Assembly (NCBI GenBank): GCA_045643025.1
Contig: JAZUJZ010000066.1
Coordinates: 1-36,725, forward strand
Direction of reading: 5' to 3'
Source of the DNA: Alphaproteobacteria bacterium
GTDB lineage: Bacteria; Pseudomonadota; Alphaproteobacteria; CAAHEQ01; UBA3637
Length of the DNA: 36,725 nucleotides
Shown here: positions 22,926 through 36,725 of the stretch, piece after piece
Layout of the letters: each line of letters begins with the position of its first letter
Position numbering within the stretch: the first letter of the stretch is position 1
Notes under the pieces: model-generated
Seen by the model: the letters and a program-made list of their open reading frames with translations, nothing else
Database searches by the model: none
What the model was told of the DNA's origin: nothing
Position numbers and translations under genes: made by a program

Positions 22926-24047
22926 GTGTCCGATTATTATGAGATATTAGGTGTCAATAAATCCGCTTCGTTTGACGAAATCAAACGGGCTTTTCGCGTT
23001 AAAGCGATGGCTTGCCATCCGGATAGACATCCCGGAGATAAAGAAGCCGAAAAGAAATTTAAGGAATTAGGGGAGGCCTATGAAGTTCTCAAAGATTCGG
23101 ATAAAAGAGCCAGTTATGACCAACTGGGGCATGAAGCTTTTAAAGCCGGCATGGGTCGTCAAAGTGGTTTTGGTGGCGGTTTTGGGGGCTTTGATTTTTC
23201 CGGCACCGGCTTTGAAGACATCTTTTCCGAAATGTTCGGTATGGGGGGGGGACATTCCCATACCAAAAAACACTCAGTCGGTGAAGACATACGAATGGAT
23301 TTAGAAATTACCTTAGAAGAAGCATTTCAAGGAATTAAAAAGGACATACAGGTAGAACATTTAGAACCCTGTTCGGAATGCGACGGTAAAGGAGGAAGTG
23401 GCATCCAAACCTGCAGCACTTGTCAGGGAACAGGTCGCATTAGACAGCGTCAAGGATTTTTTGTAATGGAAACAGTTTGTCCGACTTGTCAAGGATCCGG
23501 AGAAACCATTAAAAAACCATGTTCACATTGCCGTGGAACGGGACGTATAAAACAAAAAAAGACTTTACAGGTCAATATCCCTGCAGGCGTAGATACAGGT
23601 GTCAGAATGCGCCTATCGGGTGAAGGAAACGCTGCTGTTCGGGGTGGAATAGCGGGGGACCTCTATGTATTTATTTCAATCAAAGAACACCCCTTATTCC
23701 AACGTCGAGGGGATGATTTATTCTTAACAATGCCCATTCCTTTAACAACGGCTGTTTTTGGGGGCGAAATTGATATTCCAACCCTCAACGGTAAAATGCA
23801 ACGCCATACAGTCAAACCAGGGTTGCAATCCGGGGAAGAAAAATGTTTTGCCCATCTTGGAATGCCTAACTTACAAAATAAAGTGCGGGGTGATCTTTAC
23901 GTTCGTTTTCAGGTTGAAACTCCCATCAATTTAACCGCAGAACAAAAAACATTATGGGCCAGTTTTAATGGACAAAAAAACCAAAATCCCCTGTGTGAGA
24001 AATTCAAAAAAATGACCCAATCTCTCTTTGGCTCAATCAATCAATGA
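22926..24047 (+). CDS. dnaJ: Co-chaperone DnaJ (Hsp40)
   Basis: GTG start. J-domain YYEILGV...HPD. G/F-rich linker. Four CxxCxGxG zinc-finger repeats ([32 protein letters not shown]). Confidence 0.96.
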
Positions 24048-24519
24048 TTTCATTCGGATCAATTCCCCACAGATTTTTCCGTAAAAACCATCCGTGATAT
24101 TTTTTGTCCCGATAATTCAGTTTTAAGTGGCAATACTCCCCTTTGGGACATTCTTCAATTTGTGCCACAACACCGGGCTGTAGAACAGCCATTATTTCAC
24201 TATCCAAACGGGGATGTTGAAGCAGGGAATCTTCTTCTCTGACCAAAGCATATCTTTTTTGGCTCAACATATTTTTATTCATCCAACCCGTTGTCCCATC
24301 TACTTCACGTACCTGCCGCCAAACCTCATAGGATTCCAGTATTTCCACAGGATAATTTTGTTCCTGATATACCCAATCAATCGGGAAACGTTCCCCCGGA
24401 CCTGTGCGCAAATTGACCTCATCATATTTCAGGGACATATATTCCTTGGCCTCAATCGGTAATCCAAATAAAATAATCAATAAGAAAACAAAATTATTCT
24501 TCACCGGATTCCCCTTCAC
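24037..24519 (-). CDS. Secreted tandem bacterial SH3 (SH3b/DUF1058-like) domain protein
   Basis: 160 aa. Signal peptide ([17 protein letters not shown]). Two SH3b-like units ([17 protein letters not shown]...[20 protein letters not shown] and [25 protein letters not shown]...[12 protein letters not shown]). The start overlaps the preceding gene by 26 nt. Confidence 0.65.
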
Positions 24520-25045
24520 TTTGAAAACGATGACGAATAGAATGGGCCTGACGTCTGGGAGATAAAGTCATAGCCGACTTGTCTTCCTCTCCCCCACCTG
24601 CATCTAAAACAACAGATGAAGAAGAGGTTTCCTCGTCAGAAATAGCCATATTTAACTCATTCCAACACACCTGAACAGCGGGAAAAATCAATAATTGGGC
24701 ACAAATCAATCCACGATGGACAATCACAGGATTATGCGATGTATTTTGGATTAAAATAAACAAAGCCCCCCGATCCGCCGGATGTAAAATCTGTGGAGCG
24801 CCCAAAACAATGACCCCTTGTTCTTTGGCTAAAGTAGGAACACTCACCACTTGACCACAATAGCCCTTTGGGATACCAATGGCAAACCCAACGGGAATAT
24901 AGGCCCGTTCCATCGCATTTAATCGTATAGGTGCAGAAATCGCCGCCTGTAAATTCAGGGCAATATGATGGGCAGAAGTATAACTGGGTAACGCTAATCC
25001 CGTCCCATCAGCAGTTCGTGCAATAAAAAGACGTGGTATTGTCAT
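24494..25045 (-). CDS. dUTPase-fold protein with degenerate catalytic motifs and an acidic/Ser-rich C-terminal tail
   Basis: Colinear with Dut over about 130 aa (LPSYTSAHHIALNL...IPVGFAIGIP...VLGAPQILHPADRGALFILIQN...HRGLICAQLLIFP), but motifs I, II, III and V are substituted or absent. Start set to ATG 25045 (MTIPRL), 10 nt after the virB11 stop, not the overlapping 25108. Confidence 0.6.
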   Translation of the reverse strand: MTIPRLFIARTADGTGLALPSYTSAHHIALNLQAAISAPIRLNAMERAYIPVGFAIGIPKGYCGQVVSVPTLAKEQGVIVLGAPQILHPADRGALFILIQNTSHNPVIVHRGLICAQLLIFPAVQVCWNELNMAISDEETSSSSVVLDAGGGEEDKSAMTLSPRRQAHSIRHRFQSEGESGEE

Positions 25046-25055
25046 CCTGTTCCCT

Positions 25056-26045
25056 CTATGTGATTTCCGTAATGGCCCGAATGTTTCCATCACGATTAAT
25101 TTGAACAACCCGCAATTTTTCCTTCATCTCTTTATACAACTTTTCTCGATCGGATGAAGGATAAGTATGCATAATACGACCAATAAAGGCCTTATAAGCC
25201 GCATCCGGATTTTCGGCATGAATCGTTGCAAAACAGTTATCGTGTCCTGATCCCATTAATTCCCAAATAGCCCCCGCATTAGAGGTTGAAATTTCTCCGC
25301 CTATAATCGCATCAGGAGTAAAACGCACCGCCAAATCAATCACGTTTTTATAGGTAAAAGTATTGGTTAATTCTGTTCGTGGCATAACAATATGAACCCG
25401 ATTTGGATGTTGCACAATTAATTCCCGGGTATCCTCAATCGTCAAAATACGTTTATGCTCATCCAATAATTTCAGCATATTGTTCAAAAAAGTTGTCTTT
25501 CCGGTGGCTGTCGCCCCGCTGACCAAAATATGATCCCCCCGTTGAATAGATAACAATAAACGTTCATAGGGATCATCCGGATCTTCAACATCCTTTAATT
25601 TATTGATTTGACGTAAACGTCCCCCTTTGACTAAGCCGAATTGTTCCATTTTGATATCCAAATCTTCACGATACACACGAATGGCCATTGCTATACCACC
25701 CGTCAAATCATCGTTATCATACATCACATTACGTCCGGCAATTCCCGAAAAACGATGTCCCCCGGGCAAAGTGGCAAAAACAACAGGCATTCCGGCTTGA
25801 GGATCAAAGGCCAAATCATACGTATTGGCAATAATATACATGATGTTATTCAAATATTCCCGTGTTAATTTCGGATCTTCATAATAATGCCATGGATAGG
25901 CGTGTTTTCCCCTCAAACGCAACCAAATACCACCGGGATTATCAACAGCTACTTCTTCTACATTATCTTGACTGTACCAATAGGATAAAGGACGTAAAGT
26001 CTGTTCCAAAACACGATATGTATCTGTAATTGAAAGATTTCCCAT
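25056..26045 (-). CDS. virB11: Type IV secretion ATPase VirB11
   Basis: 329 aa. Walker A VSGATATGKTT, Walker B/Asp box RILTIEDTRE, RFTPDAIIGGE, His box GHDNCFATIHA. AGGAGA Shine-Dalgarno. Lies downstream of virB10. Confidence 0.92.
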   Translation of the reverse strand: MGNLSITDTYRVLEQTLRPLSYWYSQDNVEEVAVDNPGGIWLRLRGKHAYPWHYYEDPKLTREYLNNIMYIIANTYDLAFDPQAGMPVVFATLPGGHRFSGIAGRNVMYDNDDLTGGIAMAIRVYREDLDIKMEQFGLVKGGRLRQINKLKDVEDPDDPYERLLLSIQRGDHILVSGATATGKTTFLNNMLKLLDEHKRILTIEDTRELIVQHPNRVHIVMPRTELTNTFTYKNVIDLAVRFTPDAIIGGEISTSNAGAIWELMGSGHDNCFATIHAENPDAAYKAFIGRIMHTYPSSDREKLYKEMKEKLRVVQINRDGNIRAITEIT

Positions 26046-26053
26046 ATTATCTC

Positions 26054-29000
26054 CTATAAAGGTTGTGTTTGTGTGTTTTGAACAGGTTGTACAACACGAT
26101 CATCTATATCTTCCGGCATATCCTCCGGACCATTATAAAGAGGTTCCGGTTCTGACTTTTTATTTTTATTTTTTCTGTTGTTCTCTTTGACTGTCGTCTT
26201 GACATCCTCTTTGGGTTGGGATTTTTTACGTAAATCTGCGGGTTCTACTGTCTTGGGTCTTTGGGCAGCCGTAGGACGTTCACCAAATTCATTGGCGACT
26301 TCTTTTTCATCATCTTCCACAGAACGCAACCACAAATCCTCACGGGCAAACACCACAAATTTCGTTCCGGCCGGCACATAAACAACCGGAGGAATCCCCT
26401 CAACTTCATCAATTAACTTCTGCATAATTTCATCACTTAAATCAATCCAGTTCTGACGTTTTTCCTGTCTGGCCGCCGCCTTTTCAGAGATTGTCCCCGT
26501 TGAGGCAGAAGAAGCCGCCACTTCACCATTACCCGTATTCAAATCAATAATCATATTCGTTGCCAAGGTATTTAAGAAGGGCATCCCATACTTATTCCAC
26601 AACTGTTTATCCAAATAGGCCGCAATTCCCCCACGTCCCATCACATCCCCAGAGGAAGACCCCTGTAAATTAAAGGCCACACCATCCGGACGAATCAAAC
26701 GGCTCCATTGAATATCAATCTTGGCCACACCATCCACACCGGCCCCACTGGAGAAACTGCCAATTAAACGAGAACCGGCCGGAATTAAAATATTTCTGCC
26801 CTCTTCTCCATACACATTGGATTCAACAATTCCCAAAGCCGGTGAATCCGAGTATCTGGAATCGATAGGACGAGCCAAAACCCCACGAATGGCTTTACCC
26901 TGTAAAATCACATTACTCATATCAACAGGCCAAGTGGAAATATTCGTTTTTTCAATACCCACTCTGGACCAATCTTGATCTTTTTTGGGCTTACTGCGTG
27001 CCTGTAATTCAGCCCCAGGAATCAATAAAGTTCCCTTTCCCAAACTTTCACGCATACTGGCCCGTTTTTGTCTGATAATATCATGTATGGCATCAATCTG
27101 TTCGGGATCAATCTTCATCGGTTTTGGTTCCGGTGGCCGCTCACGACCATTGACAGCTTCCGGAGATAAAGGTTTGCCGGATAAATCAAACAAACGTCCA
27201 TCTTTCCATGTTCCCACAATGTTATTATCCTCATCCAAAACCACACCATCCGGATCTACAACATAGGTTTGATTGCCCCAAACAATTGTCCGGCGTCCTG
27301 CTCCCCCAGCGGAATCAGCCAAACCACAATGCTTAAAACTCACACTAATCCCAATAAATTTACCCATAAAACTTCCATTCGGGGCAAAAATTTGTCCATC
27401 CGGTAATAAGCTGGCATATAATTCACCATCTGCCCCCAGCATTGTTCCATCGGCCTGAATTGAGGCAATTTTATCCCCGTCCAAACCAATTAAATCGCAT
27501 CCCTGTAAACATCCCAATCCTTGGGCATAAATCATGCTCGGACAAACTTGATTATCCAAAGTACGCACTTCACCATTTTGTAAATTGACATTAAACAAGA
27601 CATCCCCTTGGGCATTTTTCACTTCACCATTCAAACCCAATGTATAGGTCAAATGTCCCTTATCATCCAGAACTAATTCTTCCTCACGAGAAACAACCCG
27701 TCCCAACACATTTCCCAACGGATCAATCACTGTCCCTTTACCATCTCCCAGCACCGTACCAATGACTTTCTGATTCACATCCTTAACGGTTCCCAAAGAA
27801 GTACTGTACCCAATCATCGTTCCATCGGGCGCAAAAACAGGGGCGGCTTCAACCACATGCCCGATATCACGCCCATCAAAAGTTTCCACAGAACCATCAT
27901 TTTTGGCACACGCCATTTCTACGCCATTCACATCTACAACAGTTGAATCCGGTAAAGTGCGCCCTAAATACTCACCCCTAGGGGACATTACCGGTCCCGT
28001 CCGCACGGTGCGTCCGATTTCTTTTCCTTGGGCATCAACAACCCATTTATCGGGACGAATACGTCCCACAACAGACCCTTGGCCATTAATCACACGTCCA
28101 TCATAGGCCGTTTGTCCCACCACTTTACAATTATTGACAATTAAAGGTTCCGGCACCAAAGCCCCCAAATTCTTAAATTGATTATCCCCTTTAACTGCCC
28201 CGTTATTTGCAATAGGTCCAACAACATCTCCTTTATAGGATACCACTTCACCGGTATGAGAGAGTGACCCCAACACTTCTCCTTCATACCCCACAGCCGT
28301 CATAAAGGGCAAAACCACCCCCGATAAAGGTTGTTCTTTTCCCAAAATCAATCCCGTATCCAAAATACGATAAAGTTTTTGATTGGCACCATCTAACACA
28401 TCCCCCGAAATATTGGTCCGTCCCAAAACCTTTTTGTTATAACCATAGGGTAATCCCTGGGCCACAGTGTGTCCCCCATAAGGCATCGTATTCAAAATCC
28501 CCTTTTGGGCAACCTGTGCCATCGCACCATCGGGTAAAATTTGTCCGACAAAGGAACCATCCGTCTTAATTACAGACCCATCTGCTGTAATCACACCAAC
28601 CGGTTTGGCATCAATATCCACAACAGCCCCTGTCGGCATCACGTTTCCTAACCATTGAGAATCCGGTGATAAAGCCGATGCAAAGGCCAATTTATGCCCC
28701 ACCTGTTTACCTTGTACAAAAACACCGCTTGTTCCGCCGGTAGTTCCAGCGACAGATCCTTTCTTATCAATAATCACAGCGGGTTGATAAACACCCCCGA
28801 CAACTTCACCGTTAGAGGAATAAATAACGGTATTTCCGGCCACATTTCCCGTTAATTTACGATCACCAAACAGTTGGCCGTTAATTTTGGGAATTCCAAG
28901 AGCCCCCAACGTTGTGGCGGTCGCAATACCCATTGGAACAATTCCCCCTGTTATTTGGGCTGTATTATTTGCCACAAAAGTATTACTCATCGCCTGACCA

Positions 29001-32000
29001 TCTATTTTAGATTGTGCAAAAGACATCAATTGTCCCATATCGGACAACATTCCCAAAGTTTGACCATTATTCATATGTGTGGCAAATAACCCCAGTTCCA
29101 GAAAACGTCCCAAAGTACCATTTTTCAAGTGAGCAAAAGGATAAGTATCACTCCGTCCCACCACGACACCGGAAGCATCCTGTAATTCGCCGGCTTCATT
29201 AATCAATCCTGCCACTTTACCCATATCCGTAAAACCAACCATACCAATGGGTAAATAACGTCCAACCATCACACCGTTTTCATCAAAGACATGACCATCC
29301 AATCCAACCTGGCCAACAACCTTTGTTCCGTTTTCTATTTTTCCGTCATAACGTGTCCAGCCCATGACCTGACCATTATTATCTACAGCAATACCCGGAT
29401 CCAATAAACGTCCCATCAATATTCCTTGATCATCGTAGAGGAAAATTGAATCTCCCAAACGTGTCATTTTCTCACCTGTTTCGGAAAGAAATTCTCCACG
29501 ACTGGAAACAGTTCCCAAAAATTGTCCCACCGTATCCACCGCAATTTGATGTGAAACCACTCGTCCCAAGAATTCACGCCCAGACCCGACGGCCATACCG
29601 GAAGGAAGAATATTTGCAAAAGGTCGACCATCCGGATTATTCACACCCCCTACAAAATTTGCCCACCCAATTAAACGACTTTGTTCATCCATAAACACGT
29701 TCAAATCTACCAAATGCCCTTTAACAGAGTTATCTCCACCCAGGATTGCTCCACCGGCTGCGACCACTCCGACCAAATTCCCCTTGATATCATTGACTTG
29801 ACCTTGATAGGCAACAGACCCTTCTTTACCAACCTGTTGGGGCATCACAGATCCCAAAGAACCTTCAATAGAAACAGGAACTGCAATAGATGGGAACACC
29901 ATTCCCAATACCTTATTTTCTGTGGAAACAGCCAAGCCATTGGCCAAAACACGACCAATTTTCTGGGCTTTTTCATTCACAACTTCCGTATTATTTTTGG
30001 CCAATCCAACAAACTGACCGGCTGTATTGAGAACAGCCCCCGAACGCACCATGGCTCCCAAAATTTTACCTTCTGCATTTCTGACCAACCCATTGGCATA
30101 AACTTTTCCCTCAACAATTTGATTTTGATTAATCAAAGTGCCATCAGATTGCAAGGTTCCCAAAATCATACCATTCAAATCGACAAAAGTTGTCCCTGTT
30201 TCAATCAAAACACCCACAACTTCCGTTCCAGATTCATTGATGACGCTTTTACCGGGCAAAACACGTCCCAAAATTTCACCCGAAGTTTTCGTGGTCAAAC
30301 CACTCATTTGATCATAGGAACCAATCACATCCCCTTTATCCGTAAAAATAGGACCGCTGATTGGGACATAGCCCACCATTTGATGATTGGCACCGATCAC
30401 ATATCCATTGGAATACACATCTCCAATCCAATTACTGCTCGCATCAAAAACTTTTCCACCGACAAATGACCATCCCGTAGAACGCCCGTTTTCATCAATC
30501 ACCACCCCCCGATTTGACAGAACGGTTTGTATTTTCTTTGATGAATTGACACATCCTAAAACAGCCCCTTTAGAATCATAAATTTGTCCATCCAAAGCCA
30601 CACGACCAATTAATTTATTTTGATCGTCCATCATAATACCCATGGGGGTCACTTGACCAATAACCTCACCATTTGTGTTCATGACCTCTTTTGTCCGAGA
30701 GATACAACCCACTTGTAATGCCTCGGGTGATACCACAACCCCTTTCAAAGAGATTAATCCCAACAACTGACAATCCGGTGCAATGGCCGTTCCCGTAGGA
30801 GCAACCATCCCCAAATACTTTTTCTTATCATCCAAAACTTGAGCATCCGGATATACCCGTCCGACAACCTTAAACTCATCATCCATAACCTGTCCGTTGG
30901 GATAAACGGCCCCAACCTGACCACAGGCATCCCGAATCACCCGACCCACAGGCATAATGGCCCCCACAAATTTATCCTTTGCAAACACAGAACCATCCGG
31001 ATTAATACATCCAATTAACTCACCTTTGGCATTAACGGCTTTACCGGCGGAATTCACAAACCCGACCGGTTGTGCTTTACTATCAATCACCAACCCTTGA
31101 CGCACCACCGAGCCAATTTCATTGGATTGAGCATTCACAACAGTTTTATCCAGCAACACATGACCTACACTTTGGTTAAAGCCATCTTTGACCTGACCAT
31201 TCATGGAAATCATCCCATAGGATTTACAAGAGGAACCCACCACAACACCCCGAGGCACAACACCCCCCACTAATCCACCGTTTTTCGATAACGCCAACCC
31301 CATCGGTCGCATATAGGCCACCACTTTATTTTGGGAATCAATGACTTTTCCATCCGGACGAATTGCCCCCAAGATTTTACCTTGAAAATCCATCACCAAT
31401 CCCCACGGGCTTAAATATGCAATGTCTTTACCATCTAAATCCACAACCCGTCCATCAATCAAAGGACGACCAACCACCTTCTTTTTGCCATCCACCATAT
31501 AGACAGTCTTATCATTCAGATTCACTTCCATTTTGGCAATCACATCCCCTTTTTCTGTCATGGCAGGAACATGAGGAATGGCTTTACCAATAATCTCAAA
31601 TTTTTCATTCACAATGGTATCATCGCCCAATAGGTGACCAATTTTACTGCCGTTAAAATCCACCACATCACGATTATCCAACACAGAACCCAATAATTCA
31701 TTCTTTAAGGATAAAGGAACTGTTTCAGGTTGAACAACCGCAATAATCTTTTTTGTTTTAGGATCAATCACGACATTATCAACAGGTTCAATTTCTTGCC
31801 CATCAATAATAACTTTTCCTTTGGGGTTTACCTGAACCGGATCACCATTGATTTTAACGGCCTCAGACGGAATAGCAGGCGCCGATTTTTCATCACATTT
31901 ACAACAGGTACAATCCTTTGAATCCGAAGAATTTGCCGATAATTCAATGGCGGTATGCTCTTCACGAAAAACACGAGGATTATCTTCCATCCAACGCAAA

Positions 32001-32491
32001 TCCAAGGTATTATGTATGGAACGCACTTTTTCGGGCATCCAAGAAACAATCAAGGTGCAACTATGTCCCATTTCCAATAAATCTTTTTCCATACACTCAC
32101 CGGATAATTGAAAGTTATCCTCTTTTTCAATTTCCAATTTCTTACCCAATAATTTGACGGGGGCATTCTGTGCCCGTAAAGTAATGGGAAATTCATCCAC
32201 TTGTCCCACAACAACCTTATCCATAACCACTTTATTGGGCGTCACCAGTAATTGGGCAGATCCATCGGCAAAAACAGGGGTCGGATCCGGTTCAGGATCA
32301 GGAGCATCCAAACTTCCCCGAATAATTCCCCCTTCATTTCCAATGGGAGATGTTTCAACAACCTCTGTTTCATCCTGTAATTGACAAAGGGCCAATAAAA
32401 ACAACAATAACAGCAAAATCCCGATAATCAATAAAATTCGATTACCACGTTTTTGTGTTTTTTGTGAAAGACTTTCTCTATTGGCTGCCAT
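26054..32491 (-). CDS. virB10: Giant type IV secretion protein VirB10 (2145 aa): N-terminal TM and Pro-rich region, Ig-like module, about 1,560-aa 17-residue repeat array, TrbI/VirB10 C-terminal domain, charged tail
   Basis: Uninterrupted 6,435-nt ORF. TM helix ILLIIGILLLLLFLLALC. Pro-rich DAPDPEPDPTPVF. C-terminal domain at aa ~1840-2055 (nt 26327-26974): ILIPAGSRLIGSFSSG, DIQWSRLIRPDGVAF, GIPPVVYVPAGTKFVVF. Sits between virB9 and virB11. Confidence 0.9.
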   Translation of the reverse strand: MAANRESLSQKTQKRGNRILLIIGILLLLLFLLALCQLQDETEVVETSPIGNEGGIIRGSLDAPDPEPDPTPVFADGSAQLLVTPNKVVMDKVVVGQVDEFPITLRAQNAPVKLLGKKLEIEKEDNFQLSGECMEKDLLEMGHSCTLIVSWMPEKVRSIHNTLDLRWMEDNPRVFREEHTAIELSANSSDSKDCTCCKCDEKSAPAIPSEAVKINGDPVQVNPKGKVIIDGQEIEPVDNVVIDPKTKKIIAVVQPETVPLSLKNELLGSVLDNRDVVDFNGSKIGHLLGDDTIVNEKFEIIGKAIPHVPAMTEKGDVIAKMEVNLNDKTVYMVDGKKKVVGRPLIDGRVVDLDGKDIAYLSPWGLVMDFQGKILGAIRPDGKVIDSQNKVVAYMRPMGLALSKNGGLVGGVVPRGVVVGSSCKSYGMISMNGQVKDGFNQSVGHVLLDKTVVNAQSNEIGSVVRQGLVIDSKAQPVGFVNSAGKAVNAKGELIGCINPDGSVFAKDKFVGAIMPVGRVIRDACGQVGAVYPNGQVMDDEFKVVGRVYPDAQVLDDKKKYLGMVAPTGTAIAPDCQLLGLISLKGVVVSPEALQVGCISRTKEVMNTNGEVIGQVTPMGIMMDDQNKLIGRVALDGQIYDSKGAVLGCVNSSKKIQTVLSNRGVVIDENGRSTGWSFVGGKVFDASSNWIGDVYSNGYVIGANHQMVGYVPISGPIFTDKGDVIGSYDQMSGLTTKTSGEILGRVLPGKSVINESGTEVVGVLIETGTTFVDLNGMILGTLQSDGTLINQNQIVEGKVYANGLVRNAEGKILGAMVRSGAVLNTAGQFVGLAKNNTEVVNEKAQKIGRVLANGLAVSTENKVLGMVFPSIAVPVSIEGSLGSVMPQQVGKEGSVAYQGQVNDIKGNLVGVVAAGGAILGGDNSVKGHLVDLNVFMDEQSRLIGWANFVGGVNNPDGRPFANILPSGMAVGSGREFLGRVVSHQIAVDTVGQFLGTVSSRGEFLSETGEKMTRLGDSIFLYDDQGILMGRLLDPGIAVDNNGQVMGWTRYDGKIENGTKVVGQVGLDGHVFDENGVMVGRYLPIGMVGFTDMGKVAGLINEAGELQDASGVVVGRSDTYPFAHLKNGTLGRFLELGLFATHMNNGQTLGMLSDMGQLMSFAQSKIDGQAMSNTFVANNTAQITGGIVPMGIATATTLGALGIPKINGQLFGDRKLTGNVAGNTVIYSSNGEVVGGVYQPAVIIDKKGSVAGTTGGTSGVFVQGKQVGHKLAFASALSPDSQWLGNVMPTGAVVDIDAKPVGVITADGSVIKTDGSFVGQILPDGAMAQVAQKGILNTMPYGGHTVAQGLPYGYNKKVLGRTNISGDVLDGANQKLYRILDTGLILGKEQPLSGVVLPFMTAVGYEGEVLGSLSHTGEVVSYKGDVVGPIANNGAVKGDNQFKNLGALVPEPLIVNNCKVVGQTAYDGRVINGQGSVVGRIRPDKWVVDAQGKEIGRTVRTGPVMSPRGEYLGRTLPDSTVVDVNGVEMACAKNDGSVETFDGRDIGHVVEAAPVFAPDGTMIGYSTSLGTVKDVNQKVIGTVLGDGKGTVIDPLGNVLGRVVSREEELVLDDKGHLTYTLGLNGEVKNAQGDVLFNVNLQNGEVRTLDNQVCPSMIYAQGLGCLQGCDLIGLDGDKIASIQADGTMLGADGELYASLLPDGQIFAPNGSFMGKFIGISVSFKHCGLADSAGGAGRRTIVWGNQTYVVDPDGVVLDEDNNIVGTWKDGRLFDLSGKPLSPEAVNGRERPPEPKPMKIDPEQIDAIHDIIRQKRASMRESLGKGTLLIPGAELQARSKPKKDQDWSRVGIEKTNISTWPVDMSNVILQGKAIRGVLARPIDSRYSDSPALGIVESNVYGEEGRNILIPAGSRLIGSFSSGAGVDGVAKIDIQWSRLIRPDGVAFNLQGSSSGDVMGRGGIAAYLDKQLWNKYGMPFLNTLATNMIIDLNTGNGEVAASSASTGTISEKAAARQEKRQNWIDLSDEIMQKLIDEVEGIPPVVYVPAGTKFVVFAREDLWLRSVEDDEKEVANEFGERPTAAQRPKTVEPADLRKKSQPKEDVKTTVKENNRKNKNKKSEPEPLYNGPEDMPEDIDDRVVQPVQNTQTQPL
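27167..31858 (-). repeat. Protein-level tandem array inside virB10: about 90 degenerate copies of a 17-residue (51-nt) unit, roughly p-x-G-x-V-h-D-x-x-G-x-h-h-G-x-V-x
   Basis: Sixteen consecutive units stay in register in aa 378-649 (nt 30545-31360). Examples: PVGRVIRDACGQVGAVY, PNGQVMDDEFKVVGRVY, PDAQVLDDKKKYLGMVA, PTGTAIAPDCQLLGLIS, PMGIMMDDQNKLIGRVA, LDGQIYDSKGAVLGCVN. The same G..V.D..G..hG.V pattern recurs from aa ~212 to ~1775. I saw no long exact DNA repeats. Boundaries are approximate. Confidence 0.8.
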
Positions 32492-32502
32492 TCATATTTC
32501 CT

Positions 32503-34059
32503 TTATTGAATTTTCACCACGGAGCATGCAAATCCACGTTTACCGATTTTACGACAAATAGATTCGGCCGTTTGAACATCCTTCATCATACCTGCACGCA
32601 AACGGAACAACTCTAACACCTCACCATCGGCCGTTGCATCAACGGAATAATAAGGTTCATAACCGGATAAAATATCTTTATTTTTGGAAAAGACTTTATT
32701 CCACAGGTTTTCCAATTCTGACATTTTCGTGCTGGTTCCAAACTCCACAGCCACACTTTCCATTCCCAGAATCGGCACAATCTCATTCTTACCGGCGGCT
32801 TGCACCACATCTTGATTGGCTTTCATAATATTATCCGGAATAGATTTAATGGAAGCAAAGGTTGTATTATTGGCACATCGACCGGCCCCTGTTTCATCAT
32901 AACAATACGGTTGAGCACTATCGGCCGAGGAAGCATAATTTGTCTGTGTCCAAATAGCCGGCATATCTCCCATAAATTGTTGTGAAACAGATGCCATTCC
33001 ACCCACTCCTTGAGGAGCATAATCTGTATATTGCAAACCACTTTCAGGACTGCGACGTAACTTAATACAAATCACTTTCCGACCATTTCTTAAAACTAAA
33101 TCACCAATTCCTTCTACAACGATTAATCGGCTGTTCGGACCACGTGTCCGATACCCAACGGGAACTTCAGAATCTTGTTCCAACATAGAAACAACAGGAC
33201 GTTGTGTCATTGTCAGTGCTTTGGGCCCCAAATCAATATAGGTAAAGATATTATCACGCCAAACATTATCGGGCGCAATATCCACGTCTTCCGGATTCGG
33301 AATAAACATATCCAAATCAAACCGCACACTTTCCGGATCCATAGGAACTGTTTTTAACCAATCTTGAGGAGCTCCACCGGCAACCCCACCGGTTCCATTG
33401 GCACCGGAGAGCATATTGTTGTTCCCTGTTCCATTTTTTAACGGAGCCGCCGCCATAGATGTCACCCCGTTAGCTTCTCCCATTTGACCACCCGAACTGG
33501 CCGGTGTCCACCGAGGTCCAACCAATACATCTACCACAGATTGGGTTATTTTATCGGTATTAAATCCTTCACTGCGTAAATAAAATACATAACGATTTCC
33601 GCTATGACCAAAAATAATCATATTACTGTCTACCCCGATATAATTCGGATCCGCATATAACAATAAAGAATTGGAAGACACAATTTCTCCCCCAAAAGAT
33701 TCCGGTGAACCGATATGCACTTTTTCAATTAACTCCCATGCAGGTAAATTAATTAAAGTCATCATTCCTTCACGTAAACGAACCGGTAACACGGTATCCG
33801 GGGTCCAATTATATTTGGTATAGCCGGGCTTTGTCTGTCCTTCGCCCAAATGTTCCATAGGGTTATTCCATGCCTTTTGTTGCATGCCCAATGAATGGAT
33901 ATAACTGGTATCCACCTGATCAAATTCTCCGGCAGATTCATTAATTGCATCAACAACCATTGCTGTTTCTGTATCGGCAGGTGTTTGAACTTGCGCACCG
34001 ACAGGGAAAACAATCCCCGCCCCCAATAAAAAACAAATTATTTTTGTGTATAAATGCAT
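32503..34059 (-). CDS. virB9: Type IV secretion protein VirB9 with C-terminal SPOR domain
   Basis: Signal peptide MHLYTKIICFLLGAGIVFPVGAQV. VirB9/CagX-like N-domain (YTKYNWTPDTVLPVRLREGMMTLINLPAWELIEKVHIGS...NRYVFYLRS). C-domain (PDNVWRDNIFTYIDLG...PVVSML...LIVVEGIGDLVLRNGRKVICIKL). The last 83 aa fit SPOR. Start set to ATG 34059 because GGAGGA (reverse complement of 34065-34070) lies 5 nt upstream. Confidence 0.85.
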   Translation of the reverse strand: MHLYTKIICFLLGAGIVFPVGAQVQTPADTETAMVVDAINESAGEFDQVDTSYIHSLGMQQKAWNNPMEHLGEGQTKPGYTKYNWTPDTVLPVRLREGMMTLINLPAWELIEKVHIGSPESFGGEIVSSNSLLLYADPNYIGVDSNMIIFGHSGNRYVFYLRSEGFNTDKITQSVVDVLVGPRWTPASSGGQMGEANGVTSMAAAPLKNGTGNNNMLSGANGTGGVAGGAPQDWLKTVPMDPESVRFDLDMFIPNPEDVDIAPDNVWRDNIFTYIDLGPKALTMTQRPVVSMLEQDSEVPVGYRTRGPNSRLIVVEGIGDLVLRNGRKVICIKLRRSPESGLQYTDYAPQGVGGMASVSQQFMGDMPAIWTQTNYASSADSAQPYCYDETGAGRCANNTTFASIKSIPDNIMKANQDVVQAAGKNEIVPILGMESVAVEFGTSTKMSELENLWNKVFSKNKDILSGYEPYYSVDATADGEVLELFRLRAGMMKDVQTAESICRKIGKRGFACSVVKIQ

Positions 34060-34118
34060 CTCATTCCTCCAACTTTTTATCCATCTTACTGAAAATCTCA
34101 ACGAATGTCCATTAAAAT

Positions 34119-34799
34119 TTATTCGTTTGTTTTCGCTAAAACCTCCCGATCATAGTTTGTGACCGTAAAACCCAAAGGATTTTTTAACCTTTGTTCCCAA
34201 TTCATCCCTTTACGAACCGTTTGAAAATTCACCTCTAATTTGGCCTGCAAATTACGTATATCTTTTTCAGAAGAACGTTGACGTTTGGTTGTCAGTAAAA
34301 ATTTAACAATCCATTGATTTTTTGCATCATCTTTCAACGCAGATTGAATCATCACTTCACGCGTCATTCCTTCATCCTCGGCTAACCTCATCGCATCATT
34401 CATTTCTTGTGCGACAAAGGCCTCATAATAAGACCGTTGTGTCATTAAATCAATAATTCCACCTACCCCCCAACGCCTTTTTAACTCTTCCAAATCAGAT
34501 CCAATCGTATAACGAGCCAAAATATATTGGCGGACATAGGATTCCTCTAACTGCTTACGATTAAAATTTTCCAATTTCGGACGCACAATATCAATCACCT
34601 GTTGATCTTTATCCTGAATATTGATTAAAAAGGGCTGAATCCGTGTTAAAGGTTGTAACGATCCCAAGGCCACCAATAACAAAATATTAGCCAACAAAGC
34701 CAAAATACCCACCACACAAAACGCCCGACTCATCCACAGATAACGTTCGGTTTTGAGGGCTTCATAGGAAGATTCTTGATCTCTTTGTTCTGTTGGCAT
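34119..34799 (-). CDS. virB8: Type IV secretion protein VirB8
   Basis: 226 aa, bitopic (TM AFCVVGILALLANILLLVALG). Periplasmic NTF2-like domain with ESYVRQYILARY and the hallmark NPLGFTVTNY near the C-terminus. Confidence 0.9.
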   Translation of the reverse strand: MPTEQRDQESSYEALKTERYLWMSRAFCVVGILALLANILLLVALGSLQPLTRIQPFLINIQDKDQQVIDIVRPKLENFNRKQLEESYVRQYILARYTIGSDLEELKRRWGVGGIIDLMTQRSYYEAFVAQEMNDAMRLAEDEGMTREVMIQSALKDDAKNQWIVKFLLTTKRQRSSEKDIRNLQAKLEVNFQTVRKGMNWEQRLKNPLGFTVTNYDREVLAKTNE

Positions 34800-34812: not shown

Positions 34813-34998
34813 CTACGTTGTCATTAAAAAATCGGGTAATTTTTCTGTTTTTTTCAATTCCAGACAGGCACATGGTGATTTTTTGAGTTCTGAATATTCA
34901 CGTCCGATGCCGACGGGGGAATTTTCATAAATAGAACCACATGCCCCAAGAATAGCCAAAACACCGATAACAACACCTAAATACAACAGTTTTTTCAT
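34813..34998 (-). CDS. Small lipoprotein, VirB7-like by position
   Basis: Start at ATG 34998 (GGAGG 5 nt upstream). MKKLLYLGVVIGVLAILGAC has a lipobox (L-G-A-C). The mature peptide is about 42 aa. It lies between two virB8 paralogues, where rvh-type clusters place rvhB7. Confidence 0.6.
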   Translation of the reverse strand: MKKLLYLGVVIGVLAILGACGSIYENSPVGIGREYSELKKSPCACLELKKTEKLPDFLMTT

Positions 34999-35058
34999 AT
35001 AACCTCCTCTGTCATAGATGTAGTGTAGCACAGAAAATAAAAATATCCAATACTTTTT

Positions 35059-35703
35059 TTATTCTTTTCTATCTGTTTCCGAAAAAGTCCGAATCAAAGT
35101 CCCATAGGGATTGGAAAAATCCGTTCTGAATAATTTTCTTTTTAAGTTATGCGTAATTTTAATGGCGGCTGTCTTTTTTTGAATTCCCGCCACTTCCCCC
35201 GTCCGAGAGGTCGTATAAATATCAAAATCAATATAATATAAATTGGCATCTCGGGCATCTTGTTTCACCTGTAAAATATCCACCGTTACCACAGAACTGG
35301 GCAAATTTTTTAACCTTTTTTCCAACCCATTTGCAAAATCCGAATAAATCGCCGGTGTGGAAAGACGGGCCAAATAACTCCTGCCCCCCCAACGACGTGT
35401 CATTTCTGCAGAATCCGGAATGCTGCTGTATCGTGTTTCCACGTAATAACGCAAAAGCATTTCATCAATAAATCCCCGATTTAACCGAGAACTTTTCAGG
35501 GAATCTTCGGATTCAAAGGGCACCACCTCACTTTGTTGTTCTGATTTCATTGCCTGCTCGGTATAAAATTGAGCCAACACCCGTAAATCACGACTGTGTT
35601 GTACAAGAGTAAAAGTCAAAAAAAATGTCAGCGACAAAACCACAACCGATCCGATAAGGGAAATCTTAAAATAGAAAAATGCCTTATCGGATGTCATAGA
35701 CAA
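35059..35703 (-). CDS. Divergent VirB8-like paralogue
   Basis: 214 aa, same bitopic architecture (TM ISLIGSVVVLSLTFFLTFTLV). MLLRYYVETRY (cf YVRQYILARY) and a degenerate C-terminal FSNPYGTLIRTF (cf NPLGFTVTNY). Confidence 0.7.
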   Translation of the reverse strand: MSMTSDKAFFYFKISLIGSVVVLSLTFFLTFTLVQHSRDLRVLAQFYTEQAMKSEQQSEVVPFESEDSLKSSRLNRGFIDEMLLRYYVETRYSSIPDSAEMTRRWGGRSYLARLSTPAIYSDFANGLEKRLKNLPSSVVTVDILQVKQDARDANLYYIDFDIYTTSRTGEVAGIQKKTAAIKITHNLKRKLFRTDFSNPYGTLIRTFSETDRKE

Positions 35704-35712
35704 ATCCCTTCA

Positions 35713-36725
35713 TTAAAAAGGACAACTTTTGAATTTAGGTAACATATCCCCTTGTTGTTTCAAGGTGTCCCGTGTTTTTTGTTGTGCTTCGGCGATCAAC
35801 TTATTACTGGATTGACGTTCATGCATCAGTTGATCTACCTCCATCGCATTGGTTTCCGTTAAATGTACCAATCCGTTGGTATCTTTTTCCAAAGCAGCCA
35901 ATACCAACTTTTGTTGGGCCACAGGGGACATCTGACTCATCGGGATAATACCGTTATCCATTTTGCCCAAGGCTTGCTGGGCCTCCGGTGACAAACGAGA
36001 TTGGCGCACTTTTTGGGCCGCATTACGCTTAGCCAACAACTCAGGGCGTTGCACATCCTGTTGTTCCAACTTAGCTACATAGGCATAGGCCTGTTTCATA
36101 TACTCGGATTTTTTTGTTTTCAGTAATTTACTCAATTGACCAAATTGTCCGGATGAAGCCAAATCAATTCCCGTGGTGTCCACACCGGCTGCCTTCACCT
36201 TATCCAAATAATCTTGTGTCATTTGTTGCTGGGTTTCATCAATGGAAGCCGCCCCTTTTTGAACAGAATCCAAAGCCAAACGCATATCATATTCTTTTTC
36301 CAAATCTCCCTTAACCATTATATTGGAAAAACTGGCCGGTGTATTCACATTCCCATTTTCAAAGAAAGTAGCAAATTCCCCACCTGATTGGGCCAAAATC
36401 TGCTGATTTTTCTTATCTTTCCATAAAGCCGGCATTTCGGGATAAACCTTATTTGTCTGACCATCTGCAAAGGCAATATTATAGACATCAGGTAACGCCT
36501 CCGGTGCTTTTGGTGGATTAGACTTAAAATCTAATTTTTTTACTTTTTTCAACTGGGCTAAATAGGCCTGATGTGCCTGTAAAACCTGACTATATTTTTT
36601 GGGATTATGACGCACCTCATCCTCTACAGCGGGACGTCCTTTCAAAGCAACACCGAATTGACGATTCATATTTTCATAAAACTGATCCCACTGCTGATCA
36701 TAAATCGTGACTTGATCTTTCCATA
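35713..36725 (-). CDS. Hypothetical Gln/Lys-rich, probably helical protein; first gene of the T4SS cluster seen here; 5' end probably outside the window
   Basis: The ORF track gives 318 aa from ATG 36669. My translation shows the frame stays open upstream to the window edge (...WKDQVTIYDQQWDQFYENMNRQFG...). No recognised domain. Its stop lies 9 nt before the VirB8-like paralogue. Confidence 0.55.
   Translation of the reverse strand, partial: WKDQVTIYDQQWDQFYENMNRQFGVALKGRPAVEDEVRHNPKKYSQVLQAHQAYLAQLKKVKKLDFKSNPPKAPEALPDVYNIAFADGQTNKVYPEMPALWKDKKNQQILAQSGGEFATFFENGNVNTPASFSNIMVKGDLEKEYDMRLALDSVQKGAASIDETQQQMTQDYLDKVKAAGVDTTGIDLASSGQFGQLSKLLKTKKSEYMKQAYAYVAKLEQQDVQRPELLAKRNAAQKVRQSRLSPEAQQALGKMDNGIIPMSQMSPVAQQKLVLAALEKDTNGLVHLTETNAMEVDQLMHERQSSNKLIAEAQQKTRDTLKQQGDMLPKFKSCPF

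Follow-up and report, generated by a model that had tools for sequence, protein, structure and literature searches.

VirB10 is the subunit of type IV secretion systems (T4SS) that joins the inner and outer membranes and passes energy to the channel, and ordinary VirB10/TrbI proteins are roughly 350–630 amino acids (aa) long. Larger forms inflated by repeats were, to our knowledge, known before only from the Cag and Dot/Icm lineages, and the repeat regions of both are structurally unresolved. CagY (Cag7) of Helicobacter pylori has ~1,927 aa, and its repeats are near-identical in DNA, recombine, and change in number. Here, we analyze a stretch of 36,725 nucleotides (GenBank assembly GCA_045643025.1, contig JAZUJZ010000066.1; hereafter the window) from an alphaproteobacterium of the lineage UBA3637, which encodes on its minus strand a VirB10 homologue of 2,145 aa with a long array of short repeats between its two ends. 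We read this protein as the scaffold of a chromosomal P-type T4SS with rvh-like gene order, and its array as a continuous, rigid superhelix of β-hairpins that would form a periplasmic collar, cage, or spacer of fixed size; we put the probability of this reading at about 60%.

With CagY, the protein has in common its giant size, the long repeats N-terminal to the TrbI domain, and the C-terminal domains, which align with E-values of 5.5e-8 to 3.9e-6. The repeat sequences of the two are unrelated, and in place of recombining DNA repeats we find units that are ~20% identical to one another within one protein, positionally orthologous between relatives, and arranged in an array of fixed length. The first-pass annotation of the window had named CagY as the only well-known giant VirB10, but DotG/IcmE of Legionella and Coxiella is giant and repeat-bearing as well, with a TrbI C-terminus and a large repeat-rich middle in 1,000 to >1,500 aa (bioRxiv 10.1101/2023.03.22.533729; PMC6761968). 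The 13-fold periplasmic collar visible in cryo-electron tomography is proposed to consist of this middle region (bioRxiv 10.1101/2023.03.22.533729; PMC6761968), and the repeat region of CagY has been suggested to reach a periplasmic collar (bioRxiv 10.1101/2023.03.22.533729). The DotG repeat is a pentapeptide-like unit of 10 residues, [KR]-x-A-G-[FY]-[STND]-x-x-x-[LI], for which confident structure predictions are lacking (bioRxiv 10.1101/2023.03.22.533729); its number varies, and its recombination has been interpreted as a sign of host exposure (PMC6761968). The array described here has a period of 17 rather than 5 or 10 residues and no match to the Pentapeptide Pfam family at E ≤ 1, and its genes follow an rvh-like, type IVA order, unlike the type IVB Dot/Icm system. 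Giant repeat-bearing VirB10 proteins are already known in CagY and DotG; the gut form is a third, independent and larger one, built on a different and recently named repeat.

VirB10 Ends and Repeat Array

The two ends of the protein are those of a VirB10, as had been claimed at first pass. The C-terminal region (aa 1861–2055; 26327..26911, minus strand) matches the TrbI β-barrel model PF03743 with 103.5 bits against a cut-off of 35 (E = 1.6e-29), covering the full profile (1–188), and the NCBIfam domain models for VirB10 and ComB10 match the same region. Compared with PDB sequences, the last 370 residues align best with ComB10 (2bhv, 1.2e-19), followed by TrwE (4.6e-12) and then by CagY, Xanthomonas VirB10, and TraF; aa ~1960–2030 align with the helical (antenna) region of ComB10. 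At the N-terminus (aa 1–40; 32372..32491, minus strand), a basic tail (aa 1–17) precedes a hydrophobic segment (aa 18–37, ILLIIGILLLLLFLLALCQL), which accounts for the sole 19-residue Kyte–Doolittle windows above 1.6 in the protein (all within aa 14–42); by homology to VirB10, these would be the cytoplasmic tail and the single transmembrane helix. A short Pro-rich stretch, DAPDPEPDPTP, follows at aa 62–72. The giant protein shares with canonical VirB10, TrbI, TraF, TrwE, and ComB10 the cytoplasmic tail, the one inner-membrane helix, the TrbI barrel, and the gene position between virB9 and virB11; it differs in having an immunoglobulin-like (Ig-like) ASH domain and ~1,560 aa of hairpins where the short Pro-rich linker stands in those proteins.

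The array comprises ~89 tandem 17-residue units (aa 223–1785; 27137..31825, minus strand) and was delimited by Pfam matches, autocorrelation, profile tiling, and predicted strands. BLOSUM62 autocorrelation over aa 212–1775, evaluated against 200 shuffles, gave z-scores of 17.4 at lag 17, 13.2 at lag 34, 14.0 at lag 51, 8.9 at lag 68, and 6.7 at lag 85, with further harmonics at lags 102 and 119, and the glycine frequency across the family has an autocorrelation of 0.52 at lag 17. Wrap-around alignment to a 17-column family profile, with the consensus P-D-G-t-V-y-D-x-n-G-k-v-I-G-x-V-x, tiled aa ~223–1785 into ~88 contiguous units at a total score of 989 bits, compared to about −400 for shuffles; just six of the tiled units contain insertions of five or more residues (5–16). 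These results bear out the ~1,560-residue insertion of ~90 degenerate units that had been proposed from the sequence, and also the continuous register described for aa 378–649, apart from a one-residue slip at aa ~503. Counts obtained from the single sequence do not separate it from shuffled controls, which yield 24–50 “units” at 8–12 bits, so the unit count rests on the family profile and on the predicted strands. A short-repeat hidden Markov model (hmmsearch) and ungapped tiling with a position-specific scoring matrix were also tried; both under-detected units and mixed registers, and were replaced by the wrap-around profile.

The first-pass annotation could not assign the repeat to a named family. 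Pfam, however, contains two models that match it above their cut-offs: the 5-fold β-flower PF21785, with 207.2 bits against 38 over 10 stretches of the array, and the 4-fold β-flower PF21784, with 43.5 bits against 25. A match to DUF3659 lies slightly under its cut-off. On these profile scores, the repeat belongs to the β-flower families PF21785/PF21784 of clan CL0395. The β-flower families were described in 2023 from a fold found in AlphaFold models, a shallow barrel whose petals are β-hairpins (PMC10584680). At its tip, each hairpin has a semi-conserved [DNEQ]xxG motif, and its strands are short, with one longer and one shorter loop; the described examples are closed barrels of 8, 10, or 12 strands (4-, 5-, or 6-fold) of ~96 residues, many of which have a helix at the center or a lipoprotein signal, and the fold has no known function (PMC10584680). 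The units of the giant VirB10 agree with this description in their hairpin petals, their short strands, and their D-x-x-G tip motif, with D/N at column 7 and G (or C) at column 10 of the consensus. They differ from the known, small closed barrels in that ~89 petals follow one another unbroken inside a T4SS subunit.

At the DNA level, Tandem Repeats Finder detected no tandem repeat in the array; imperfect direct repeats reach at most 47 nt, with 66–72% identity. Comparison of the repeat-block profile with PDB sequences gave no significant match.

Predicted Structure and Putative Cysteine Staples

AlphaFold2 models were built from alignments of orthologous segments, 37 sequences for aa 345–649 and 20 sequences for aa 650–1800. 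The first of these segments is the cleanest block of the array, with 18 hairpins (30545..31459, minus strand; 305 aa long in most orthologues), and was predicted with a mean predicted local distance difference test score (pLDDT) of 92.4 and a predicted template modeling score (pTM) of 0.86. For the second, of 1,151 residues, the mean pLDDT was 87.6 and the pTM 0.81. In both, all units are β-hairpins, in which a turn connects a short strand to a longer one, and aa 345–1800 together contain 164 strands (82 hairpins), most often spaced by 17 residues. The pTM values indicate that AlphaFold2 treats long blocks of the array as single rigid bodies and not as beads on a string.

A search of the PDB with Foldseek returned Rhs/YD shells, teneurins, Tc toxin BC, and the choline-binding protein LytC, with E-values down to 2.7e-26 and probabilities up to 0.96. 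The same matches have template modeling scores (TM-scores) of just 0.06–0.12 and root-mean-square deviations (rmsd) of 20–36 Å, and this combination of strong E-values and tiny TM-scores suggests that the local building principle is common to these proteins while the global shape differs. What the array shares with the RHS/YD shells of type VI secretion Rhs effectors, Tc toxin BC, and teneurins, and with choline-binding and CROP solenoids, is that ~20-residue β-hairpins line up as one continuous antiparallel strip, which is wound into a larger structure. It has no YD motif, encapsulated toxin, aspartyl protease plug, or choline-binding aromatic pairs. The giant VirB10 gave no match to RHS PF05593 at E ≤ 1, and precomputed PF05593 matches are present in some orthologues only. 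Membership among closed Rhs-like cocoons was considered and rejected on the TM-score of ~0.08.

The array contains four pairs of cysteines, each exactly 73 residues (four units plus five residues) apart, which co-occur perfectly in an alignment of 77 sequences. C422 and C495 are both present in 67 orthologues and both absent in 10; C523 and C596 are both present in 75 and both absent in two; C574 and C647 are invariant in all 77; and C1455 and C1528 are both present in 75 and both absent in two, with no sequence carrying a single member of the first or the last pair. Each pair combines column 10 of unit i, at the hairpin tip, with column 15 of unit i+4, in the second strand. The first three pairs lie in the cleanest block (30551..31228, minus strand), where C523–C596 and C574–C647 interleave, and the fourth lies farther along the array (27908..28129, minus strand). 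In a distant clade with ~25% identity, in which the gene is split (see below), a spacing of 73 residues between cysteines is again dominant, and interleaving occurs there as well. If the pairs are read as disulfides, hairpin i touches hairpin i+4. A uniform account of all pairs, suggested by their positions in the sequence, would be a continuous lock-washer superhelix with ~3–5 hairpins per turn, an “extruded flower.”

The alternative that stays closest to the Pfam families is that the array is a string of independent closed flowers with four, five, or six petals. Such a string would run from the inner-membrane anchor to the outer-membrane barrel as a long flexible tether, or would bind a ligand such as lipid or peptidoglycan in a multivalent way. 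The strongest match is indeed to a 5-fold model, in ten separate stretches, and the 4-fold model matches too; all described β-flowers are closed shallow barrels, some of them lipoproteins, and the few units with insertions of 5–16 residues could be domain breaks. We nevertheless consider this alternative unlikely. Freely oriented domains would not give pTM values as high as 0.86 and 0.81, and 18 units follow one another without a linker. The interleaved pairs 523–596 and 574–647 cannot both be ring-closing staples of separate five-petal flowers, and no super-period of 68, 85, or 102 residues emerges beyond the decay of the 17-residue signal. Measured against the closed barrel that defines a β-flower, the interleaved cysteines, the lack of linkers, and the pTM values point to an open, continuous superhelix.

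Conservation, Distribution, and Location

Among 5.8 billion proteins searched, 99 clusters matched, and 76 of them are further full-length orthologues of 2,063–2,609 aa with 27–61% identity, so that the giant VirB10 is present in at least 77 clusters. All listed orthologues share the Pfam architecture of the giant VirB10, and their names are at most “TrbI/VirB10 family protein,” “DUF3659 domain-containing protein,” or “hypothetical.” In a scan of one genome per species, a relative was present in 328 genomes; the best 80 of these all carry the giant VirB10, a few of them as a fragment or in split form, and nearly all 80 are uncultured Alphaproteobacteria metagenome-assembled genomes (MAGs) from the guts of humans (Hadza, Nepal), ruminants, horses, and rabbits. 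The setting is a large clade of uncultured gut Alphaproteobacteria and not a known genome of the Rickettsiales or Holosporales, across which the first-pass annotation had suggested a tabulation of VirB10 lengths, although the gene order is rvh-like. The first-pass annotation had also stated that its claim would be refuted if the protein proved to be a characterized, common family; this applies in part, as the family is common in metagenomes, yet uncharacterized. We found no paper that links VirB10 with the β-flower, with DUF3659, or with these gut lineages. When the C-terminal 360 residues were scored against 1.84 billion representatives, the closest ~60 clusters were giant, of ~1,400–1,650 aa, or fragments, and more distant VirB10 proteins had the usual 400–630 aa.

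The same alphaproteobacterial operon also occurs in three records titled Holdemanella biformis or uncultured Lactobacillales (L029, L035, and L047; labels of this type denote related loci), which are probably mis-binned contigs.

The units of the array are orthologous by position. In an orthologue with 60% identity, units of the same index are 62% identical, compared to 20% for units at other indices, and in the most distant orthologue the corresponding values are 27% and 22%. Many glycines at specific positions are invariant across orthologues, and so are cysteines. Across the 77 orthologues, the array is 1,547–1,999 aa long with a median of 1,585, and 55 of the 77 fall between 1,547 and 1,607 aa. 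Positional orthology, fixed length, and the lack of DNA repeats together indicate an old structural array and not a recombination cassette, in agreement with what the first-pass annotation had supposed. Judged from these alignments, the array is ancient, constrained in size, and confined to one large clade.

In distant relatives, the gene is split into two adjacent open reading frames (ORFs; L070:10001-17827 and L075:9968-17860), whose products form the protein classes P0094-P0099 and P0078-P0093. The upstream one comprises the transmembrane helix, the ASH domain, and hairpins, and ends in “...QEVAKNRRN*”; a separate Sec-type signal peptide (e.g., KKILKRFLVSMLGTVLALKTVSA/AEITAIDFNG) opens the second, which goes on with hairpins and the TrbI domain. 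So clean a split, with a new signal peptide, is not what gene decay produces, on the evidence of the sequences. The signal peptide implies that the second half of the array is exported to the periplasm by itself, and the split form implies that a covalent link between the inner and outer membranes is dispensable, which favors an architectural, self-associating role over a purely mechanical tether. From this signal peptide, from the topology between membrane anchor and barrel, and from cysteine pairs that fit an oxidizing compartment, we infer that the array is periplasmic.

Surface exposure has been proposed for the repeats of CagY, and the array could likewise be an adhesin, a sheath, or a host-contact fiber beyond the outer membrane. 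Its rate of divergence would agree with this. Within the operon, identity to locus L001 is 97% for VirB11, 78% for VirB9, 59% for the giant VirB10, and 54% for VirB8, and the mean identity to orthologues is 0.38 for the repeats compared to 0.51 for TrbI; compared with VirB11 and TrbI, both the array and the tail at the C-terminus have changed at a much higher rate. The hosts are gut-associated, and repeat recombination in DotG has been taken as a mark of host exposure. Yet the topology, with the array ahead of the barrel in the chain and attached to a helix in the inner membrane, makes it periplasmic, and the array is about as conserved as the N-terminal domain (0.38 and 0.40). Nor do we find DNA repeats, a recombination cassette, or variation in unit number of an antigenic type; units are orthologous and length is fixed. 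An exposed array thus appears slightly less probable than a string of separate flowers.

The first-pass annotation had pictured the array as a β-hairpin stack or β-solenoid fiber with one 0.48-nm rung per unit and a length of >40 nm, and had deduced a greatly enlarged periplasmic or surface-exposed T4SS structure; a fiber of this length would require a much wider periplasm or else an extracellular spike. The regular 17-residue period, the alternation of hydrophobic residues and glycine, and the rigidity of the models would all suit such a cross-β fiber, and the hairpin part of the proposal holds, every unit being a β-hairpin in the models. The rung part is unlikely. In each unit, DSSP shows a short strand connected by a turn to a long one, the pattern of antiparallel hairpins and of the β-flower family, and a disulfide from unit i to unit i+4 would have to span ~1.9 nm in a stack with 0.48 nm per unit, which excludes that geometry if the cysteine pairs are disulfides. 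The dimensions of the model argue in the same direction. The Kabsch rmsd of two point sets is at least the difference of their radii of gyration; the rmsd between the 1,151-residue model and compact Rhs cores is ~30 Å over ~1,150 aligned columns, and Rhs cores have a radius of gyration of roughly 3 nm. With these dimensions, the 65-hairpin model would have a radius of gyration of at most ~6–7 nm, as against ~9 nm for a straight 31-nm rod, so the modeled body is presumably curved, coiled, or folded back. The length of >40 nm is thereby not established, and we regard a straight fiber as improbable.

That the ORF is an artefact of mis-assembly, a chimera, or a decaying gene, as a metagenome-type contig, an exact protein found on one contig only, and a distant clade with a stop codon in mid-gene could be taken to mean, is the least probable reading: 76 orthologue clusters and the best 80 of 328 species genomes, from independent studies, have the same architecture and length, glycines and cysteines are invariant at specific positions, and the split in the distant clade is clean and comes with a signal peptide. 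The reading frame (26054..32491, minus strand) is uninterrupted across 2,145 codons from an ATG start to the stop codon, as first described for this 6,435-nt ORF, and its end-to-end alignment with the orthologues makes an assembly chimera or a frameshift very unlikely.

Proposed Role of the Array

We propose that the giant VirB10 is anchored in the inner membrane by its N-terminal helix, which would be followed by the Ig-like ASH domain, and that its TrbI barrel, by homology, is part of the outer-membrane core complex together with VirB9 and a VirB7-like lipoprotein. Between the two ends, ~89 β-flower hairpins would take the place of the short Pro-rich linker and pack as one rigid superhelix of ~3–5 hairpins per turn, with neither separate flowers nor a floppy tether. 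The tip of hairpin i would contact the base of hairpin i+4, and conserved periplasmic disulfides would staple this contact. Each subunit of the ring would then bear one hairpin body of 170 kDa, probably in 13–14 copies, and these bodies together could build a collar, cage, or spacer of fixed size around the channel, a counterpart of the repeat-bearing middles of CagY and DotG. The collar role is one that we infer from the precedent of the DotG repeat region and, by extension, that of CagY.

Several observations weigh against this proposal. The number of hairpins per turn, the overall shape, and the distances between paired cysteines are deductions and not measurements. The likeness found by Foldseek is local (TM-score ~0.08), the global geometry is unconfirmed by any solved fold, and the best Pfam match is to a closed 5-fold flower. 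Mutual information with average product correction, pooled over units i and i+k, is weak, with an effective number of 93 sequences; for k = 4, columns 10 and 15, those of the cysteine pair, rank highest, and the top individual pairs are three or four units apart, but noisy. A Fourier search of conservation, hydropathy, and charge for a super-period at the level of units gave none that survives multiple testing, with a marginal cluster at ~3.0–3.1 units as the sole signal. The divergence of the repeat region beyond that of VirB11 (59% compared to 97% identity to L001) could mean an exposed, host-facing role. No gene for VirB4, VirB6, or VirD4 was found in the window; in particular, virB11 is not followed by virD4. 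Finally, the protein misses the NCBIfam equivalog cut-offs, with 100.4 bits against 220 for NF038091 (T4SS_VirB10), 16.2 against 374 for NF010429, and 16.1 against 400 for NF041422; by these scores, it is a divergent, family-level member of VirB10 and not an equivalog.

A more far-reaching version of the proposal, which we offer tentatively, is that 13–14 disulfide-stapled superhelices of 89 hairpins stand side by side as a multi-megadalton, all-β periplasmic cylinder. This would be a new class of T4SS, in which the number of units acts as a molecular ruler. VirB10 alone would then contribute ~3 MDa, the class would be specific to a widespread clade of mammalian gut Alphaproteobacteria, and a first function would be assigned to the orphan β-flower fold, which would serve as an “extruded flower,” an open-ended material for construction.

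At 2,145 aa for the protein of the window and as many as ~2,600 aa for relatives, these are the largest VirB10 proteins found so far. They place the β-flower, a fold with no known function, in a defined molecular machine and draw attention to a secretion system, so far unstudied, of Alphaproteobacteria that are common gut inhabitants of ruminants, horses, rabbits, and non-industrialized human populations. For the study of giant VirB10 proteins they offer a repeat that AlphaFold2 predicts with confidence, unlike that of DotG, together with built-in disulfide landmarks and a natural split variant, and these make the role of the repeat or collar region approachable.

Other Domains of the Giant VirB10

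The domain at aa 75–200 (31892..32269, minus strand) is an Ig-like domain of the ASH/MSP type. ASH PF15780 matches it in 39 of 47 orthologues (best E = 5.9e-8), and models for Cep192_D4 and for the Ig domains of HYDIN and VesB match it as well; its profile has no significant match among PDB sequences. C133, C145, W151, and W167 are invariant, a C194-x-x-C197 motif is present, and C133 co-varies with C145, giving two conserved cysteine pairs. The ASH/MSP-type Ig-like family consists mostly of eukaryotic ciliary and centrosomal proteins, along with VesB-like bacterial proteins.

A linker rich in proline and lysine (PPEPKPMKIDPEQ...; aa 1786–1850; 26942..27136, minus strand) connects the array to the barrel and has a low pLDDT at the end of the second model. 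Behind the barrel, the protein ends in a charged tail rich in lysine, glutamate, and proline (aa 2061–2145; 26054..26311, minus strand), which is poorly conserved, with a mean identity to orthologues of 0.17; that of the N-terminal domain is 0.40.

Operon and Genomic Context

All genes of the operon lie on the minus strand. Directly downstream of the giant virB10 follows virB11 (25056..26045), encoding an ATPase that matches TIGR02788 (VirB11, 1e-40) and T2SSE and is syntenic in all 10 loci examined. Directly upstream lies a virB9/CagX-like gene for a protein of 532 aa (32503..34101; PF03524 CagX, 9.5e-15; TIGR02781), also syntenic, preceded by virB8 (34119..34799; PF04335, 4.6e-21). Next to it, in the position of VirB7, is a gene for a small lipoprotein (MKKLLYLGVVIGVLAILGAC..., lipobox ...AILGAC; lipoprotein 34813..34998, ORF 34813-35031), which is found in seven of the 10 loci with 49–65% identity and which would, from its position alone, be VirB7. 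A divergent VirB8-like gene follows (35059..35703), whose product has 214 aa, an N-terminal membrane segment, and no Pfam match. Its position is occupied in all 10 loci by proteins of 209–237 aa, for which the best match in the window is VirB8 in L050, L055, and L071 and the VirB8-like ORF in the other seven; this similarity hints, weakly, at a second copy of VirB8. The outermost ORF (35713-36669) encodes 318 aa and has no Pfam match; relatives have 387–534 aa, and the ORF is probably cut by the end of the window. The order of transcription is thus the latter ORF, the VirB8-like gene, the lipoprotein, virB8, virB9, the giant virB10, and virB11, and from the VirB8-like gene to virB11 it is held in 10 of 10 diverse loci examined.

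This order resembles the rvh islet of Rickettsiales, which is also chromosomal and has a duplicated VirB8 around a lipoprotein, followed by VirB9, VirB10, and VirB11. RvhB10 is of ordinary size, and its hosts are obligate intracellular Rickettsiales, in contrast to the gut MAGs that carry the giant VirB10. In R. typhi, the order is rvhB8-II / rvhB7-rvhB8-I-rvhB9-II-rvhB10-rvhB11 (PMC4676284). The virD4 directly after virB11 and the proliferated virB6 paralogues of the rvh islet were not found in the window. From the VirB8-like gene to virB11 the locus has the order of the rvh type, the second VirB8 and VirB7 being assigned by slight similarity and by position.

VirB9 is about twice its usual size, owing to a linker rich in Gly, Ala, and Asn and to ~150 additional residues at the C-terminus, and its orthologues have 495–609 aa. 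For the additional C-terminal region, the sole hint is a non-significant match to SPOR (E = 0.12).

In L001:29-5202, five more co-oriented ORFs of 259–642 aa lie upstream, without a Pfam match. A Pfam search with the two upstream ORFs of the window and with seven ORFs of L001, i.e., these five and the two counterparts, gave no match; such ORFs may be unrecognized T4SS components.

The chromosomal surroundings consist of housekeeping genes, namely, dnaK/dnaJ, infB, nusA, metG, spoT, ispH, and typA. After virB11, genes for a dUTPase/dCTP-deaminase-like protein and for a bacterial SH3-domain protein follow (24037-25108, minus strand), which are syntenic in L001, L003, L022, and L046.

The GC (guanine–cytosine) skew is uniformly negative over 26000-32500, at −0.22 to −0.36, and stronger than in the adjoining minus-strand genes; this fits the 15% glycine content of the giant protein, with its GGN codons on the coding strand. 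An antisense ORF of 262 aa (29681-30469, plus strand) lies wholly within the repeat array, and orthologues have such ORFs too, for example, one of 1,026 aa in L075. These antisense ORFs are probably by-products of the biased, glycine-rich codon content rather than genes.

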